Positions 1,308 to 52,425 of a DNA stretch of 64,000 nucleotides are shown here, piece by piece (position 1 is the stretch's first letter; every line of letters begins with the position of its first letter). The position numbers were made by a program, and so were the translations under genes. Under the pieces are notes generated by a model. It was not told where the DNA came from. It did no database searches and was given only the letters and a program-made list of their open reading frames with translations. Source of the DNA: an uncultured Prevotellaceae bacterium (GTDB lineage: Bacteria; Bacteroidota; Bacteroidia; Bacteroidales; Bacteroidaceae); the NCBI GenBank assembly GCA_902770635.1, contig CACXTX010000030.1:2467-66466 (forward strand). The letters are read 5' to 3'.

Positions 1308-2999
1308 ATGGAAACGTTTCAATGGTTGACTAATTTATTTACAACTACAGACTCTGTAGCACACATAGCATTGCTTTATGCTATGGTGATTGCCGTAGGT
1401 GTGTATTTGGGAAAAATTAAGATTGGAGGTATCTCTTTAGGTGTTACCTTTGTGTTGTTTGCAGGTATCGTAGCTGGGCACATCGGCTTAACTGCCCCCA
1501 CCCCTATCTTAACATTCGTACAGGATTTCGGACTGATTCTGTTCGTCTTCATGATTGGTATGCAGGTAGGTCCTGGCTTCTTTGAAAGCTTCGGCACCCA
1601 GGGCATCAAGCTCAATGGGTTGGCTGCCAGTGCCATCCTGCTGAACATCCTCGTGATGTTTGCCTGTTACTATATCTTCTTCGACACTAGTAACGTAACC
1701 AACCTGCCCATGATGGTGGGTACGCTCTATGGTGCCGTTACCAATACGCCAGGACTTGGTGCTGCCAACGAAGCATTAGGCTCCGTGTTCGACAGCAACG
1801 CCCCACAGATTGCATCAGCCTACGCCTGTGCCTATCCGTTAGGTGTGTTAGGCATTATCGGAGCTACTATATTAATTAGGTATATATGCAACGTGAAGTT
1901 GGAGAATGAAGAGGAGCGACTGAAAGCCCAAGAGGGTGTGAAGGCCAACCAAAAGCCTTATAAGATGCACTTGGAGGTGACCAACCAATACTTGGAGGGC
2001 AAGACCTTGTTGCAGGTGCACGACTTCCTGAATCGCGACTTCGTAGTATCACGACTGGTTCATGAGGGCGAGGTATGCATCCCTAACCGTAATACTTTGT
2101 TCCATGTGGGTGACCAGATGTTAATTGTTTGTGCCGAGGCCGACCATGAAGCTATTACAGCCTTCATCGGACCTAAGATTGATGTTGATTTTGAACAGCA
2201 AGACCAACCTATGATTTCCAAAGGTATCCTAATTACCAATCCGAAAATCAATGGAAAAACGCTGGCCTCGATGCATTTCTCAAGCGTACATGGTGTCAAC
2301 GTGACTCGTGTCACCCGTCATGGCATCGACCTCTTTGCCTCTGCCAGTCTTCCTCTGCAGGTGGGCGATAAGATTCGAGTGGTAGGTCCTGAGGATGCTG
2401 TCAACCGTGTGACCAACCTGATGGGTAACTCTTCGCGCAAACTAAACACACCCAACATTGCCACTATCTTCGTGGGAATCTTCCTGGGACTGATCTTCGG
2501 TTCACTGCCTATTGCCATTCCTGGCATGCCTGTTCCTGTGAAATTAGGTTTGGCTGGAGGTCCGTTGATTATTGCCATCCTGATTGGCCGCTATGGTTAT
2601 AAGATTCACCTAGTAACCTATACAACGACCTCAGCCAACATGATGATGCGCGAGATAGGACTAGTGCTATTCCTTGCTTCCGTAGGTATCAAAGCTGGCT
2701 CTACGTTCTTCTCCACGGTTGTTGAGGGCGATGGACTGCTCTATGTACTGACAGGTTTCTTCATCACTATCATCCCCATCCTCATCGTTGGTCCAATAGC
2801 ACGCATGAAGTTTAAATTCAACTACTTCACTATCGCAGGTATGATAGCTGGTACCTATACAGACCCCCCTGCCCTGGCCTATGCCAACAGCATCTGTTCG
2901 AAAGAGGCTCCTGCTTTGGGATATTCAACGGTCTATCCGCTTTCCATGTTCCTGCGCATTTTCACAGCTCAGATTGTGGTACTCTTCTTCTGCGGATAA
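1308..2999 (+). CDS. AspT/YidE/YbjL family transporter with two TrkA-C domains
   Basis: 563 aa with duplicated membrane domains ([12 protein letters not shown] and [12 protein letters not shown] motifs) flanking a soluble central region. Confidence 0.88.
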
Positions 3000-3042
3000 G
3001 GCTTAAAAATTAAAGAATATAATAATACACAATAGCAACGCA

Positions 3043-46839: not shown

Positions 46840-47241
46840 TTATACCGCTATCAATTCTTTACCTATTTCACGTACAGCATCAAGGATCAGCGTAACCCTT
46901 GCTTCGCCAGCCTTCTTCTTACCACTGATATACTGTGCCATCAGACTCTGAGAAATTCCCAAGCGGCGTGCGATAGCAGAGACATTCAACTCTGGGTGAG
47001 CCATAAAGACTTTGTAGAGTTGAGTCGTCTCTCGCTTATCAAAGAACCCTTCAAAGCTCAAGTCTTCATCAATGTCCTCCCAATGCAGTCCGTACTCATC
47101 AGCCTCATAATTTGCACGTTGTTCTTTGGTTGCATATCTTAGGCGAGGATAGTCTGCGAACTTCTCGCATGCCTCACGTCCTTCAGCAGTCCTAATCCAA
47201 ACCGCATCGTCAGTCAGCCAAATCTTCTCAATCTTCTCCAT
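46840..47241 (-). CDS. DUF2442-like protein with C-terminal HTH (putative antitoxin)
   Basis: YPRLRYATKEQRANYE...GLHWEDIDEDLSFEGF followed by HTH NVSAIARRLGISQSLMAQYISG. Start MEKIEK at 47241 has a GAGG RBS. Confidence 0.75.
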   Translation of the reverse strand: MEKIEKIWLTDDAVWIRTAEGREACEKFADYPRLRYATKEQRANYEADEYGLHWEDIDEDLSFEGFFDKRETTQLYKVFMAHPELNVSAIARRLGISQSLMAQYISGKKKAGEARVTLILDAVREIGKELIAV

Positions 47242-47254
47242 AGTTACCTCCTTT

Positions 47255-47494
47255 TTATTTTGCATTATTAAAAAACGTATTCCAATGCTGGGCTATAATC
47301 TCTTCGTTATCCTCCAAGATTGCCTCTATCATTTTCAGTTCAGACGGTTTGAAACCATGATTATAAACCAATGAAATGGGTAGGATGTTATATTTTGCCA
47401 CCGCTCCACCTTTCTTCACGTGAATATGGATGGGCGTATGGTCGTTCCCATAGAACCAAAATCTGAAACCTAATAGCGTAAATACTGTCGGCAT
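47255..47494 (-). CDS. DUF4160-like protein (putative toxin)
   Basis: MPTVF...GFRFWFYGNDHTPIHIHV...AKYNI...WNTFF pattern; TATCTTTG box at 47521-47528. Confidence 0.78.
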   Translation of the reverse strand: MPTVFTLLGFRFWFYGNDHTPIHIHVKKGGAVAKYNILPISLVYNHGFKPSELKMIEAILEDNEEIIAQHWNTFFNNAK

Positions 47495-47597
47495 ATCACT
47501 CAATCATTGCATTACTGCTGCAAAGATAGGTAATTATTTTATTACCTCCAAATTTTGGAACAACTTTTTTGTTTTCCATCTTCCTTCAACCATCATC

Positions 47598-47735: not shown

Positions 47736-48440
47736 CTACCATCTCATTTTATTAGGGTCAACATCATCCAGAGCAAATAAGTCTGTAAACTTCTCATACG
47801 AATCATAGTGGCAAAAGAGGCTCTTCTGCTCTCTTAAAGCCTTACGAATAACCTCCGCTACTTCTGGAATGGTTGATTTTGGACCATCGCAATAAATGAA
47901 TTCATTGAGTTCCTTAACTGATTCCTTGTCGAATACACATTTCGCCAAGTCTATCATTTGTGTGTCTGTCAGTTGGTCAATTGTCCTAGGTGTAAAGGGA
48001 GGGTACTGTAAAGCCTCGCCTTTCATGAATTTCCATTGTTCTGCATTAAAGAATTCCTCATAAGCTATAGGGAAATCTTCGTTTTTTGCATGTTCTGCAA
48101 TAACTTTGAACCATTCCACATATTCCCTGTCCTCACCTTCAGCCAAATTGATAAAACTCTCGTATTCTCTCATGAAGTCATTAGCTGTTTTCATCCCTTC
48201 TCCTTCTTTAGGAAACGCAGCGCCTGTCGAGCCATAAGGACAATTGAATGGGATACAATCACTATGACGCTCAAATAAATTGCTGTCCTTCATCAAAACT
48301 TTTGGATATACCGCCCATCGCCAACAGCATCCGTTGGGCGACATACCTGGAAATAACCTCAGTTGTTCATATCCCCACTGATGGAGTTGATGAACAATCA
48401 TCACAATTTCATAAGCGCTGCAAGTATATAACAATTCCAT
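47736..48440 (-). CDS. Hypothetical protein
   Basis: 234-aa ORF co-oriented with and 18 bp from the upstream zinc-ribbon gene; no family recognised. Confidence 0.7.
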   Translation of the reverse strand: MELLYTCSAYEIVMIVHQLHQWGYEQLRLFPGMSPNGCCWRWAVYPKVLMKDSNLFERHSDCIPFNCPYGSTGAAFPKEGEGMKTANDFMREYESFINLAEGEDREYVEWFKVIAEHAKNEDFPIAYEEFFNAEQWKFMKGEALQYPPFTPRTIDQLTDTQMIDLAKCVFDKESVKELNEFIYCDGPKSTIPEVAEVIRKALREQKSLFCHYDSYEKFTDLFALDDVDPNKMRW

Positions 48441-48458: not shown

Positions 48459-48743
48459 TCAGTCAACCATCATCACCATACCGGTCTCTTCAAGCTTACC
48501 TCCACATTTTGGGCATTTTCCTTTTCTTGGATTCCATAATTCAAGCTTTTCAGAACCACATTCAGGACATTTTATCTTTTCAGCTTTCTCACCAAGAGGA
48601 AATGTCAGAACGTCAACAATCTCACGACACCCCTTGCACAGGTATGTGTACACTTCACCAGCCATCATTAAGTCATGTCCTTTTGGATTAGCCTCTACGG
48701 TATAACCGCAATGTTTGCATTGATATTGTTTGTAAGTAGCCAT
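48459..48743 (-). CDS. Small zinc-ribbon protein (four CxxC)
   Basis: CKHC, CKGC, CPEC, CPKC in 94 aa; starts 7 bp after the RM gene stop. Confidence 0.75.
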   Translation of the reverse strand: MATYKQYQCKHCGYTVEANPKGHDLMMAGEVYTYLCKGCREIVDVLTFPLGEKAEKIKCPECGSEKLELWNPRKGKCPKCGGKLEETGMVMMVD

Positions 48744-48750
48744 ACTCTAT

Positions 48751-51700
48751 TTAATTGTTTAATACGATTTCACGTTCTTCTGGTGTTAAGCCATAGAGGT
48801 CGAACACCTTGTTGTCTATCTCGTTGTCTGTAGCCTTTATCTGCTCTGAGAGTTCTTGGCAGGCTTGGCGATATTGGTTAAAGTAGTCTTCCCACTCGTC
48901 TTGCTGAACCAGTGTGAGTTTTATCTTCTGTTTCTTCAGTTCTGCCACGAAGCCCTTGAAGTCTAACTGGTCAAATGACTGCAAAGCTGTTGTTATTTTG
49001 ATGCTCTCAAAGTTCTCACTCAGACGATGGAGGAAACGAGTGCGTTTCTCTTGAAGCTGGGAGTTGAGGGAAAGCATCGTATCGGCGAGTGTAATGAAAG
49101 GTAGTTGGGATTCCTTAGGAATAACCTTTATTGGAAACAGCCTTAAATCATTTAGGATAATCTTGGGAAATAGTTTTCTCTCAGCTTTTGCTGTATTCTT
49201 TTTAAAATAGAAAGAGAGCAAAGAACTATTTAGAAGTACAAGAATATATTTAAGACTAACATTCTGTCCTTCTCGCTTTACTACAGCAATATTACTGCGA
49301 TTATATAAATAGGTATCTTCTGTATAGACAGCATTTAAGCAATGAGGAAACTCACTTGTAATCTCGCGAACAATTATCTTTTCATCAGTAAATAAGTTTA
49401 ATGTCCTTGGGGCTGCAAGATGATTCCCATACCAGAGCCATTGCCCTGTCCAATTAACAGCGTATCTCAACACATTGCTTCCATCAAGGTACTTATACGT
49501 GTCTTCATTAAACTGATAAGTATAATCATAGGGGCGAGACTTCACATCTTCTGCACTTTGCTTTGGTATTCCTTTGCCTTTTTCGTAAGCTTGAAGTCCT
49601 GCTTTTACACAAGCTACTTCATCAAGGTCTCGACATCCCTCTCTTAATTTCTCAGTTAATGATTCACTTAAGTCATCTTGAAATACAAGAAACTCATAAC
49701 CGGGATTATGCGAAAAAACATTTTGCTTTTTGTAATGAAGAAAATCAAATGAACTACTTTTTTCGTCTGTTTTTAAGATTTCAATTGTATGGTTTGTGTC
49801 TGCAACACTTTTCTTCATAATGGAAATAACAGTTTCGACATTTGCATCTTCAAATGATTTTCCATACAAATTAACAATTTTATCCACAGAAGCCCTTTCA
49901 ATGAAGATTTTACGTAAGGCTTCTCCAGAATATGTCATTAGCCATGAGTTTGGGACGATAAGACCAATAATGCCATCCTTTTTCGCGAGCAGTAATGATT
50001 GCTCCATGAAGATAATATATGTGTTTACTTGGTACTTAGCAGACTCATAGACTTGTGAATAATAGGCTTTATCTTCTTCAGAGACTTTTTCTCTTGCAAA
50101 TACATACGGCGGATTACCAATCACCACATCGAAGCCTCCTTTTTCGAATACCTTGGGGAATTGCTCTTGCCAGTTGAAGGCTTTTTCGCCAGCAATAGCA
50201 GGATCGCTAATCAGCGAGTTTCCACATTTGATATTCTCATTGAGTGAGTTCAGCTTACGATGTGGTTTGGCTGTACGTAGCCACAGCGCTAACTGGGCTA
50301 TCTCAACACTTTCTTCATTGATGTCAACACCATAGAGGTTATGCTCTAAGATGCTGTTCTCCACATCCTGGAATACAATAGCAGAACCTGCTACCTTTGC
50401 CTCCATCTCATCTATCAGTTTATGCTCTGCCATCAAAAACTGCAAGGCAGCATTTAGGAAAGCTCCACTACCACAGGCAGGATCGAGAATCGTAATCTGG
50501 AGCAACCAATCACGATATTGTTGCAACTGATCCAATAAACGCTTCTTGGTTTGCAGCTGGCGACGTTGATCTGAGAAATATTCATCCTCAACGATATTTA
50601 GCTGCTGTTTATTTTCAGCACAAAGACGCCCAACGGTATTCTCCACAATGTATTTTGTGATATACTGAGGCGTATAGAACACACCGTCCTGCTTACGCTT
50701 CGAGGTTTGGGGAGTCTCGCCACTATTGATTTGCTGAGTAACCTCTTCAATCTCTGAAAGCGAGTTCTCAAAGATATGCCCCAAGATGTTCACATCCACA
50801 TCGCTCTCAAAGTCGTATTCTGACAGTTTGCGAGTGTGTGCAACCAAAAGGTCGTCGCTAATCTTGATATTGTCCAGTACTTCATCAGGCTTAAATAGTC
50901 CACCGTTATAGGCAAATATCTCATACTTCTTGCCCTGATAGCCAGTGTTCATGTAGCCGAAGTACTTCTTTACTCTGTCGTAGAAAGGCCGATATTCGTC
51001 CATCTCCTTGAGGCTCTCCCACTGGTCAATAATCTGCACCATCGAATTGGGAGGCAGAAGTCCACAATCCTCAGCAAAGAAGATAAACAGCAGACGGTCA
51101 AGCAGTTTCTGGGTCTTCTTAAAAAGAAGCAGTTGCCATTCTTTTTCATCCTTGTCTTCTGGAGTTGGATTTAGTTTCAAGATGTTGGCAAAGAGTACTC
51201 GCTTGAACTGCGAATAGTCTTTATAAAGTGCCTTGGTAATCTGGTCTTCACTCGACACAGACTCCTGTTTCATCTGCAAAGCCACACCTCGCTCAACCTG
51301 CTTCCAAGCGAGGCAGAGAAATAGTTCTCGGAAGTCTTCTTCCGCCAGATGAAACAGGTTCCATTCGCGATATTCTACAGCATTGTCTATATAGAGACGA
51401 AGTTTCTCGAAATTAGAAATAACAACATAGCGTGCATCAGGATGCTGGCTTTTGTAGTTGAAGGCCTGCGGCTCCACTTTAGAAAGGTCTGTGGTCTTAT
51501 GGTCTTTCAGCTCAATCACACCAATCACCTTACCGTCTTTCTGAATAGCACCATCAGCTTTCTTCGAGTTTGTCTCATTCTTTTTCTCTGTAATCAAGTT
51601 GAAGTTAGGCGAAGGGTTTAGCGTATAGCCTAACACCTTCACAAACAATTCGCGAAGGAAACCTTCCTGGAATTGTTCTTCTTTCGATTGCTGAATATTG

Positions 51701-51813
51701 GCTTGTATCTGTGCATCAAGAAAATAAGCCTGAAATTGTTTCCAAGCCACAATGACAATTTCTTCATCAATCAGACCCAAGTATTTCTTGAGAATAGTTT
51801 TCTGAAGTAGCAT
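48751..51813 (-). CDS. Type IIG (Eco57I/TaqI-like) restriction endonuclease-N6-adenine methyltransferase fusion
   Basis: N-terminal PD-(D/E)xK-like ADGAI...IELK, GVFYTP, LDPACGSGAFL (motif I), GNPPY (motif IV), C-terminal TRD-like region. Start set to MLLQK at 51813. Confidence 0.88.
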   Translation of the reverse strand: MLLQKTILKKYLGLIDEEIVIVAWKQFQAYFLDAQIQANIQQSKEEQFQEGFLRELFVKVLGYTLNPSPNFNLITEKKNETNSKKADGAIQKDGKVIGVIELKDHKTTDLSKVEPQAFNYKSQHPDARYVVISNFEKLRLYIDNAVEYREWNLFHLAEEDFRELFLCLAWKQVERGVALQMKQESVSSEDQITKALYKDYSQFKRVLFANILKLNPTPEDKDEKEWQLLLFKKTQKLLDRLLFIFFAEDCGLLPPNSMVQIIDQWESLKEMDEYRPFYDRVKKYFGYMNTGYQGKKYEIFAYNGGLFKPDEVLDNIKISDDLLVAHTRKLSEYDFESDVDVNILGHIFENSLSEIEEVTQQINSGETPQTSKRKQDGVFYTPQYITKYIVENTVGRLCAENKQQLNIVEDEYFSDQRRQLQTKKRLLDQLQQYRDWLLQITILDPACGSGAFLNAALQFLMAEHKLIDEMEAKVAGSAIVFQDVENSILEHNLYGVDINEESVEIAQLALWLRTAKPHRKLNSLNENIKCGNSLISDPAIAGEKAFNWQEQFPKVFEKGGFDVVIGNPPYVFAREKVSEEDKAYYSQVYESAKYQVNTYIIFMEQSLLLAKKDGIIGLIVPNSWLMTYSGEALRKIFIERASVDKIVNLYGKSFEDANVETVISIMKKSVADTNHTIEILKTDEKSSSFDFLHYKKQNVFSHNPGYEFLVFQDDLSESLTEKLREGCRDLDEVACVKAGLQAYEKGKGIPKQSAEDVKSRPYDYTYQFNEDTYKYLDGSNVLRYAVNWTGQWLWYGNHLAAPRTLNLFTDEKIIVREITSEFPHCLNAVYTEDTYLYNRSNIAVVKREGQNVSLKYILVLLNSSLLSFYFKKNTAKAERKLFPKIILNDLRLFPIKVIPKESQLPFITLADTMLSLNSQLQEKRTRFLHRLSENFESIKITTALQSFDQLDFKGFVAELKKQKIKLTLVQQDEWEDYFNQYRQACQELSEQIKATDNEIDNKVFDLYGLTPEEREIVLNN

Positions 51814-51874
51814 AGTAATATTCGGTTTTAGCGCACTCACTGACTTATCGGGCTTTGTAACGGACAAAACCAAC

Positions 51875-52110
51875 GGGACCTCAGAACATAGAAAAGGCGT
51901 GAACCGCCTTATCTACATCTTGAGGCCCTAGGATTGCCCGAATTACCAGATAAGTCATGTCCACACCCTAAGGTGCAGAACTAGAGACTATTTTGGTAAT
52001 TCATATCATTGAAATTTCCTAGGTTTCAAGATGTACCGAATAATCAGCTAATGCTGTTATTGTTTTTACCCACAAAAATCGCTCCGCTCGGCTTGCACTC
52101 AAGCCATTGT
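51875..52110 (-). ncRNA. Candidate structured 5' leader RNA of the RM operon
   Basis: Nested perfect arms 51914-51923/52026-52035, 51927-51933/52017-52023 and 51940-51948/51994-52002, plus hairpins at 51894-51910 and 52090-52105. TACTTTTG promoter box at 52126-52133. Confidence 0.5.
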
Positions 52111-52425
52111 GAACAAAGCTTGTTGCAAAAGTACAAAAATAAAATGATATACAAATGTTTTTCACTAAAAAATCTACGAGAATTGGGTAAAAGGGGTATT
52201 TCAGAAGGGCAATGAAAATCGGAACACTGGTACACGTGAATTGTCTTTTGAATGTATATTTTTGCTAGATAAAACGGCAAAAAGAAGGGGTAATTGATTC
52301 TGATTAGAAAAAAAAAACTCATAAAAGTTTGGAAGTTATTGAAAAACAATGTATTTTTGCAAAATGAATGTCGTATGACATTTGACATCAGAGAGAATAA
52401 TTTAAGGACTTAATTCCAAAAGCTT

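Follow-up and report, generated by a model that had tools for sequence, protein, structure and literature searches.

Restriction-modification (R-M) enzymes present at the wrong level or at the wrong time can kill their own host, and the known safeguards include controller proteins, antisense RNAs and promoter methylation. For single-chain Type IIG enzymes, we know of no control mechanism. In the window (the whole 64,000-nt stretch of DNA that was analysed), a gene for such an enzyme lies on the minus strand behind a leader of roughly 310 untranslated nucleotides, which raises the question of what this leader is and what it does to the gene that follows. The initial annotation had estimated the gap between promoter box and start codon at about 300 nt; measured on the minus strand, it is 313 nt from the −7 box (52133-52126) to the ATG (51813). 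The elements that frame the leader are:

52126-52133, minus strand: TACTTTTG, a −7 box of Bacteroidetes type that fits TAnnTTTG; putative promoter
51811-51832, minus strand: A/U-rich stretch and ATG, directly before the 1020-aa open reading frame
48751-51813, minus strand: Type IIG R-M gene, 1020 aa, recognised by Pfam and PADLOC

TAnnTTTG is the consensus of Bacteroidetes/Bacteroides −7 promoter boxes, and a box of this form is found at the equivalent place in 28 of the 30 homologous leaders long enough to include that site, where the region reads TATCTTTG, followed by CA..CAAGTA. The 1020-aa product matches Eco57I (5e-46), N6_Mtase, TaqI_C and MmeI_N/hel/Mtase in Pfam and REase_MTase_IIG in PADLOC (7e-245). 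Its domains are arranged as a nuclease N-terminus, a helicase-like spacer, a gamma-class N6-adenine methyltransferase and a TaqI_C-like specificity domain. Homologues of the gene share 80-93% DNA identity in its first ~1.7 kb and final ~0.3 kb, and have no DNA similarity over about 1 kb between them (49100-50101); the dissimilar segment is where the target is recognised, so otherwise near-identical Type IIG genes have likely exchanged specificity domains. Directly downstream lie genes for a 94-aa zinc-ribbon protein (48459-48743, minus strand) and a 234-aa protein without family match (47736-48440, minus strand), which may be accessory genes of the R-M cassette. The same pair lies 3′ of the R-M gene in locus L091, and a zinc-ribbon gene does so in L105, which ends there. 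A DUF4160/DUF2442 gene pair (46840-47503, minus strand) completes the neighbourhood downstream of the cassette, and a similar pair is found just upstream of the leader in L103. A 114-aa open reading frame (52044-52388, minus strand) shares sequence with both the promoter and the leader's 5′ domain and is probably no gene, since it contains the conserved promoter and is unconserved in the other loci.

Is the leader structured beyond chance, and is it a known RNA? The minimum free energy of the minus-strand RNA is −111.6 kcal/mol, compared with −77.8 ± 5.0 for 100 shuffled sequences, none of which folds as well (z = −6.8). For the plus strand, the fold is weaker (−93, z = −5.4). The structure of the leader thus exceeds chance. 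Rfam 15 at its gathering thresholds gave no match in the whole window or in six homologous loci, and at E ≤ 10 (stretches of 1.1 and 0.3 kb) returned only noise (snoRNA, miRNA and viral pseudoknot models scoring 14-19 bits, where the thresholds are 36-74). A scan for tRNA and tmRNA genes found none, and a search of the literature found no description of such a leader. The short open reading frames of the leader are unconserved (an ATG is lost in L037, and a stop follows five codons in L056), and a leader peptide was rejected.

We found 35 homologues of the leader in rumen Prevotellaceae genomes and metagenomes. Six of 80 genome loci that encode relatives of the R-M protein carry it at 85-94% identity (L002, L003, L015, L033, L037 and L056), all from rumen Prevotella/Prevotellaceae and one of them, L037, from the cultured Xylanibacter brevis ATCC 19188 (leader at 2699-3001); an exact-word scan of metagenome contigs added 29 further loci. 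A covariance model of the Fold A domain described below found no leader upstream of the other 74 R-M loci, and none lies on the contigs retrieved for the protein homologues P0004 and P0057. Compared with the window, the six genome homologues are 88.4-94.5% identical in the leader core, while the first 1500 nt of the adjacent coding sequence are 54-73% identical at third positions and 91-97% at positions 1 and 2. The leader is therefore under purifying selection and evolves about as slowly as the codon positions that determine amino acids. Together, the Rfam result, the homologues, their covariation and their conservation bear out the idea that this is an uncatalogued structured RNA family, here of rumen Prevotellaceae.

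The family is associated with R-M genes, and not with one of them only. Across the 29 metagenome loci, the leader precedes three unrelated cassette types: Eco57I-like Type IIG enzymes, true MmeI-family Type IIG enzymes with all five MmeI domains, and operons of an EcoRI_methylase-family methyltransferase (matches of 2e-57 to 5e-133) with a GmrSD_N/HNH nuclease. Metatranscriptome contigs likewise connect it to alternative genes (a loose end at 51813, MVKRTARLQG...). Promoter box, leader and ATG are co-oriented at every locus that extends into the gene behind it (L087, L104 and L106 stop within the leader), so that the leader occupies the place expected of an attenuation leader: within the 5′ UTR, in gene orientation and 3′ of the putative promoter. 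Downstream of the cassette there is often a gene for a DUF4268/DUF4357 protein, with other recurrent genes beyond it, including one with DUF4417, and the upstream flanks vary between loci. Because the same leader stands before unrelated cassettes, it is a portable module rather than part of one gene. Conversely, the enzyme does not require it, since the same R-M gene occurs without the leader: in L017, L028 and L030, which encode very close R-M homologues but lack the core, similarity to the window starts at the start codon, and the UTR of L028 is roughly 25 nt.

Some of these loci are of interest in their own right. L017 (2890-3003), whose R-M homologue is 93% identical in DNA, has the same promoter box and the same start of the 5′ stem-loop (TAACTTTGCATTCAAGTACTG...) with a UTR of only ~100 nt lacking the bistable core, and is thus a natural core-deleted variant. 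The metagenome loci L098, L099 and L101 are 99.85% identical over a block of at least 7.5 kb that holds the leader, EcoRI-type methylase, GmrSD/HNH nuclease, DUF4268 protein and further genes. The block starts 361 nt upstream of the leader core, beyond which L098 enters a different flank, whereas L099 and L101 share ~42 nt more and then diverge; since the flanks diverge beyond it, the block may move or recombine as a whole. A related Type IIG gene (P0004, on 18 contigs) is split into overlapping open reading frames of 405 and 607 aa in at least nine places (L115-L123); this split gene, frameshifted or phase-variable, has a short UTR and no leader.

What does the leader RNA look like? The initial annotation had described the arms of one fold and the hairpin of a second, and both descriptions hold; it did not mention that unrelated R-M cassettes share the leader, nor three structural elements, namely a 5′ stem-loop domain, the helix P1 that closes the core, and H1, a weak hairpin. 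The general framework consists of:

52081-52119, minus strand: 5′ stem-loop domain, closing stem GCUUUGUUC/GAGCGGAGC around the hairpin GGCUUG-AGUG-CAAGCC
52036-52054, minus strand: P1 5′ strand GCAUUAGCUGAUUAUUCGG, preceded by the conserved A-rich AAAACAAUAACA
51862-51874, minus strand: U-rich stretch GUUGGUUUUGUCC, 3′ of Fold B; its UUGUCC pairs with GGGCAA (51939-51934)
51833-51851, minus strand: P1 3′ strand CCGAUAAGUCAGUGAGUGC, which closes the 215-nt core

The 5′ domain has in every homologue a closing stem of 8-9 bp around one to three hairpins, the last of which carries an AGYG-type tetraloop. The sequence of the stem differs by lineage (GUAUCGGC/GCCGGUAU, GUACUGGC/GCUGGUAU and GCAUUGCC/GGCAGUGC, among others). 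P1 (52054-52036 with 51851-51833) closes the core ~20 nt before the ATG and is paired in 99.3% of alignment cells; its 5′ strand is nearly invariant, and substitutions affect one side only (G-C replaces G-U in 12 sequences). Its 3′ strand, which lies downstream of both candidate terminators considered below, is retained even in divergent members known from loose ends in metagenome contigs. The helix UUGUCC/GGGCAA is 95% paired, again with one-sided changes only, and the linker that contains GUUGGUUUUGUCC is the most variable part of the family. G-U pairs are conserved in P1, P3 and Fold B, and are possible on the minus strand only. Complementarity between ACCGAAUA (51826-51819) and UAUUCGGU (52042-52035) is conserved at 97%, without informative covariation, and raises the possibility of a helix that would sequester the RBS; as a covariation-backed helix the candidate fails, since its sole informative column (52035) covaries with Fold A instead.

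Fold A is the part of the structure on which compensatory changes converge. Its three arms of 10, 7 and 9 bp were recovered at the coordinates first described by an inverted-repeat scan:

51914-51923 with 52026-52035, minus strand: Fold A arm 1, perfect 10 bp
51927-51933 with 52017-52023, minus strand: Fold A arm 2, perfect 7 bp
51940-51948 with 51994-52002, minus strand: third arm of Fold A, 9 bp, GAATTACCA/TGGTAATTC, within the repeat 51940-51956/51986-52002
52017-52035, minus strand: 5′ strands of Fold A, arm 1 at 52035-52026 and arm 2 at 52023-52017
51914-51933, minus strand: 3′ strands of Fold A, arm 2 at 51933-51927 and arm 1 at 51923-51914
51940-52002, minus strand: P3 domain, with the variable and covarying basal stem GAAUUACCA/UGGUAAUUC

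In an alignment of 32 distinct leaders, from which all pair counts were taken, arms 1 and 2 are paired in 100% of cells, with changes on both sides in 4 of 10 and 3 of 7 pairs, respectively (7/17). Examples are CCUAGG/CCUAGG, CCUGAG/CUCAGG, CGUGAG/CUCACG and CGUAGG/CCUACG, and the replacement of UACAUC/GAUGUA by CAUAUC/GAUAUG. The basal stem of P3 shows double changes in five of nine pairs, and its distal part (51989-51953, UAGUCNCUAGUUCUGCACCUNAGGGUGUGGACAUGACUUAUC) is invariant, the distal 40 nt being the same in 31 sequences save for three to four single positions. Arms and P3 together have 12 doubly changed pairs with 96.4% of cells paired, and none of 500 shuffles matches the observed score; for the whole structure, the covariation score is 0.120, compared with 0.062 ± 0.004 for shuffled alignments and 0.019-0.032 for slid partners. 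This covariation argues strongly for the predicted Fold A, and the arms and P3 form a conserved domain with covariation support of the kind expected of an attenuation leader. The search for homologues and covariation thus turned up both, where their lack would have spoken against the interpretation in the initial annotation.

The second fold and the hairpin that accompanies it are:

51875-51928, minus strand: Fold B, extended hairpin, −33.1 kcal/mol, tip AAGGCG-GUUCA-CGCCUU (51910-51894), then UUUUCUAUGUU
52005-52032, minus strand: H1, weak local hairpin, AUCUUGAAA/UUUCAA(U)GAU, about −3 kcal/mol

Fold B pairs 51876-51899 with 51905-51928, which are 75% complementary as DNA, and four of its mismatches become G-U pairs in the minus-strand RNA, as had been proposed. 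Segment 51914-51928 is indeed used by both folds, and read as 51928-51914 it is the outer 5′ arm of Fold B. Across the alignment, 97.8% of Fold B cells are paired; ten pairs vary on one side and always still pair (G-U to G-C or A-U, A-U to G-U), and none varies on both. All nine kinds of substitution in its arms preserve or improve pairing. A divergent metagenome variant has the 3′ arm GUCUUGAAGCC instead of GUUCUGAGGUCC, and of the four differences, three give better pairing with a 5′ arm that has stayed the same. Support for Fold B, from conservation and compatibility, amounts to roughly p = 0.03-0.1 by our own rough estimate. H1 competes with arm 1 of Fold A and holds the 5′ strand of arm 2 in its loop. 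In 27 of 28 homologues it has 9 bp and a single bulged nucleotide, and in L093 it has 8 bp. The change of U to A at 52029 occurs only where 52008 is U (7/7, versus 8/23 in the remainder), as H1 requires, and is compensated in Fold A at 51920. Among the aligned homologues, Fold B and H1 thus show pair-preserving changes only, with no double compensation.

Do the two folds compete? With each state enforced in 27 homologues, the difference in predicted energy ranges from −6 to +10 kcal/mol, with a median of about 2, on totals of about −90. When the growing transcript is folded as far as the tip hairpin with its U-tract (about 51886), Fold A has the lowest energy in 27/27 homologues; Fold B displaces arm 1 once its 3′ arm is present, again in 27/27. 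In the full-length leader, Fold B beats arm 1 in 26 of the 27; after the loss of arm 1, H1 appears, and P1 forms in most full-length molecules. The hairpins themselves are predicted at −33.1 (Fold B), −10.8 (arm 1) and −8.4 kcal/mol (tip). Because Fold B outcompetes arm 1, Fold A should persist in the full leader only if it is stabilised. Our main argument that the alternative pairings are functional follows: Fold A, the fold that covaries best, is the predicted fold of the nascent or 3′-shortened RNA. The folding calculations thus indicate competition between Fold A and Fold B. Of the proposed switch between mutually exclusive folds, the exclusivity is borne out in these models and the switching is plausible, with Fold A backed by covariation and Fold B by conservation, pair-preserving substitutions and thermodynamic dominance.

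Together, these observations lead us to favour, with slightly better than even confidence, a portable cis-acting leader in which the transition from Fold A to Fold B gates read-through or translation of the R-M genes. The leader RNA of roughly 310 nt would be transcribed on the minus strand from the conserved Bacteroidetes-type promoter, and the nascent RNA would first form Fold A, with arms 1 and 2, the P3 domain and the small hairpin at the tip. As the next ~20 nt are transcribed, the more stable Fold B would capture the 3′ strand of arm 1; the freed 5′ strand would form the weak H1, P1 would close, and the A/U-rich stretch before the ATG would be left open. The balance or timing of the two folds may then set read-through at the tip hairpin and U-tract or at Fold B and its U-rich site, as well as translation, and the outcome would be limited or conditional expression of nuclease and methylase. 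That the leader controls the amount of R-M enzymes is probable, given that a conserved folded family with two competing shapes precedes unrelated R-M operons. The data show the family, its link to R-M genes, the selection on it, the structure of Fold A and the competition between the folds; that the leader regulates, that it switches in vivo, what would trigger it and whether its output is termination, translation or stability are matters of inference.

The same folds could belong to a leader that does not switch, which we regard as rather unlikely. Fold A, P1 and P3 would then be the sole functional fold of an mRNA stabiliser, a translation-tuning element or a protein-binding platform, with Fold B and H1 as by-products of constraints on the sequence or as harmless folding intermediates. 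Such a static leader would account for the confinement of double compensation to Fold A and P3, with none in Fold B; furthermore, the 5′ domain resembles a 5′-terminal protective stem-loop, and the invariant distal P3 could be a protein site. It sits poorly with the energies, where Fold B (−33) beats arm 1 (−10.8) in 26/27 homologues and Fold A needs stabilising or a shorter RNA, with the recurrence of near-equal state energies among homologues, and with the conservation of the Fold B 3′ arm and H1 through pair-preserving changes only.

The opposite extension, that the leader is a true sensor, riboswitch-like or responsive to a protein or RNA, which couples interchangeable R-M cassettes to a cellular signal, is also unlikely in our estimate. 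The signal would be received by the Fold A domain with the invariant tip of P3, and Fold B would serve as the output; candidate signals include the methyl-donor pool, entry into a new host and phage attack. If true, it would be the first case of an RNA sensor that serves a defence-gene slot. The loci compared have no common trans-factor gene beside the leader, and no conserved opposite-strand promoter was seen by eye; no evidence was found for the antisense control that the initial annotation had offered as one option.

How the leader is expressed bears on whether it might act as an RNA of its own. Leader words occur in dozens of rumen metatranscriptomes, and the depth of core words reaches 500-1100x in two RNA runs of 0.3-0.7 Gb (assembled contigs without strand information), compared with 60-360x in DNA runs of 1.3-2.2 Gb. 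The leader is therefore transcribed, probably strongly. The RNA runs show a sharp 10-100-fold drop in depth near 51885. In addition, the promoter/terminator scan found the tip hairpin followed by UUUUCU to be terminator-like, with the hairpin invariant, although as a terminator it is weak (6 bp, −8.4 kcal/mol); the U-rich run after Fold B is absent from divergent variants. These features could mark an independent trans-acting small RNA of roughly 230 nt that mostly ends at the tip hairpin and U-tract (about 51890), is folded as Fold A, exposes the conserved 5′ strand of P1, and leaves the R-M genes to be expressed by read-through only. Fold A is the predicted fold of that shorter RNA in 27/27 homologues, which would explain its strong covariation, and per gigabase the RNA depth over the core is high. 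Nevertheless, we hold this to be quite improbable. The depth profile is largely repeated in DNA metagenomes, and the drop was rejected as the 3′ end of an abundant terminated RNA, since the DNA control behaves alike; it rather reflects the variable linker among many family members. Indeed, loose ends reveal many further members that diverge in the linker (51875-51853) and keep the Fold B 3′ arm, the pairing of GCCC with GGGC, and CCGAUAAGUCAG. The ratio of core to linker is steeper in RNA (15-46 fold) than in DNA (1.6-13 fold), which as a sign of an RNA end is only suggestive. The 75 nt 3′ of the tip hairpin, which hold the Fold B 3′ arm and the P1 3′ strand, are conserved like the core and are always directly followed by the R-M start codon.

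The leader might instead act mainly at the level of DNA, as the left boundary or a homology arm of a slot for exchangeable defence genes or as a mobile-element end, and owe its conservation to recombination copying (a role that can coexist with an RNA function). This reading would suit the different cassettes between leader and recurrent DUF4268/DUF4357 gene, the varying upstream flanks, and the start of similarity at the ATG in leaderless close R-M homologues, and is nonetheless highly improbable, given compensatory double changes that maintain helices, the strand asymmetry of the conserved G-U pairs, a leader far more conserved than linked synonymous sites (for which recombination spread is inadequate), and the lack of a second copy, terminal repeat or nearby recombinase and of phage, plasmid or viral matches. 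The leader proved to be neither a repeat nor an element end in the window, where blastn, nhmmer and the covariance model found no second copy, and it was not found in phage collections, 72,556 plasmids or IMG/VR. An end of a mobile element, attC-like site or IS was rejected on its single copy, the absence of an adjacent recombinase and the conserved G-U pairs that favour one strand. Five IMG/VR matches to an 18-mer are chance hits in unrelated coding sequence. An Frpo-type single-stranded DNA promoter was rejected as well, the promoter box being upstream of and outside the structure, with 0 matches in 72,556 plasmids.

If the portable leader is regulatory, it would be a new control module for defence genes in a highly abundant rumen genus, and, regulatory or not, it is predicted to be a compact, naturally bistable RNA with rich natural compensatory variants. 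The cultured carrier Xylanibacter brevis ATCC 19188 makes the question directly testable.

Among known systems, the leader resembles in layout the riboswitch and attenuator leaders such as the T-box and other ON riboswitch platforms. Like these, it lies between promoter and start codon and contains a large conserved domain whose helices covary and whose loops are invariant. As in antiterminator-terminator leaders, the 3′ strand of arm 1 also belongs to a stronger hairpin downstream, after which the sequence is U-rich, an upstream hairpin (H1) competes for the other strand of arm 1, and the states are near-equal in predicted energy. Unlike riboswitches, it matches no Rfam class, and it precedes R-M enzymes instead of metabolic or transport genes. 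Unlike attenuators, its U-tract after Fold B is weak and unconserved in divergent members, and P1 spans the candidate terminators.

Control of R-M genes, according to a review by Mruk and Kobayashi, reportedly operates through C proteins and through antisense RNAs or reverse promoters, for example in EcoRI and Eco29kI. The presumed purpose of the leader would be similar, namely to limit or time a potentially self-toxic nuclease encoded by genes that move from host to host. The means would differ, since the leader is a long structured RNA on the sense strand. No C-protein-type controller gene or C-box was found by the R-M gene, where the neighbours are the zinc-ribbon protein, the 234-aa protein and the DUF4160/DUF2442 pair, and no controller recurs across loci. 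Furthermore, the leader is common to single-chain Type IIG enzymes and a two-gene methylase/nuclease operon.

Finally, the leader can be compared with ROOL, GOLLD and raiA, orphan large structured RNAs from rumen and other metagenomes (PMC5737381, PMC10861870). Like them, it is found in the rumen, is strongly structured with covariation, often lies near mobile or defence genes, and is without a known biochemical function. In contrast to them, it is much smaller (core about 215 nt), has so far been seen in Prevotellaceae/Bacteroidales only, always stands directly 5′ of a co-oriented start codon, and has clear alternative pairings.
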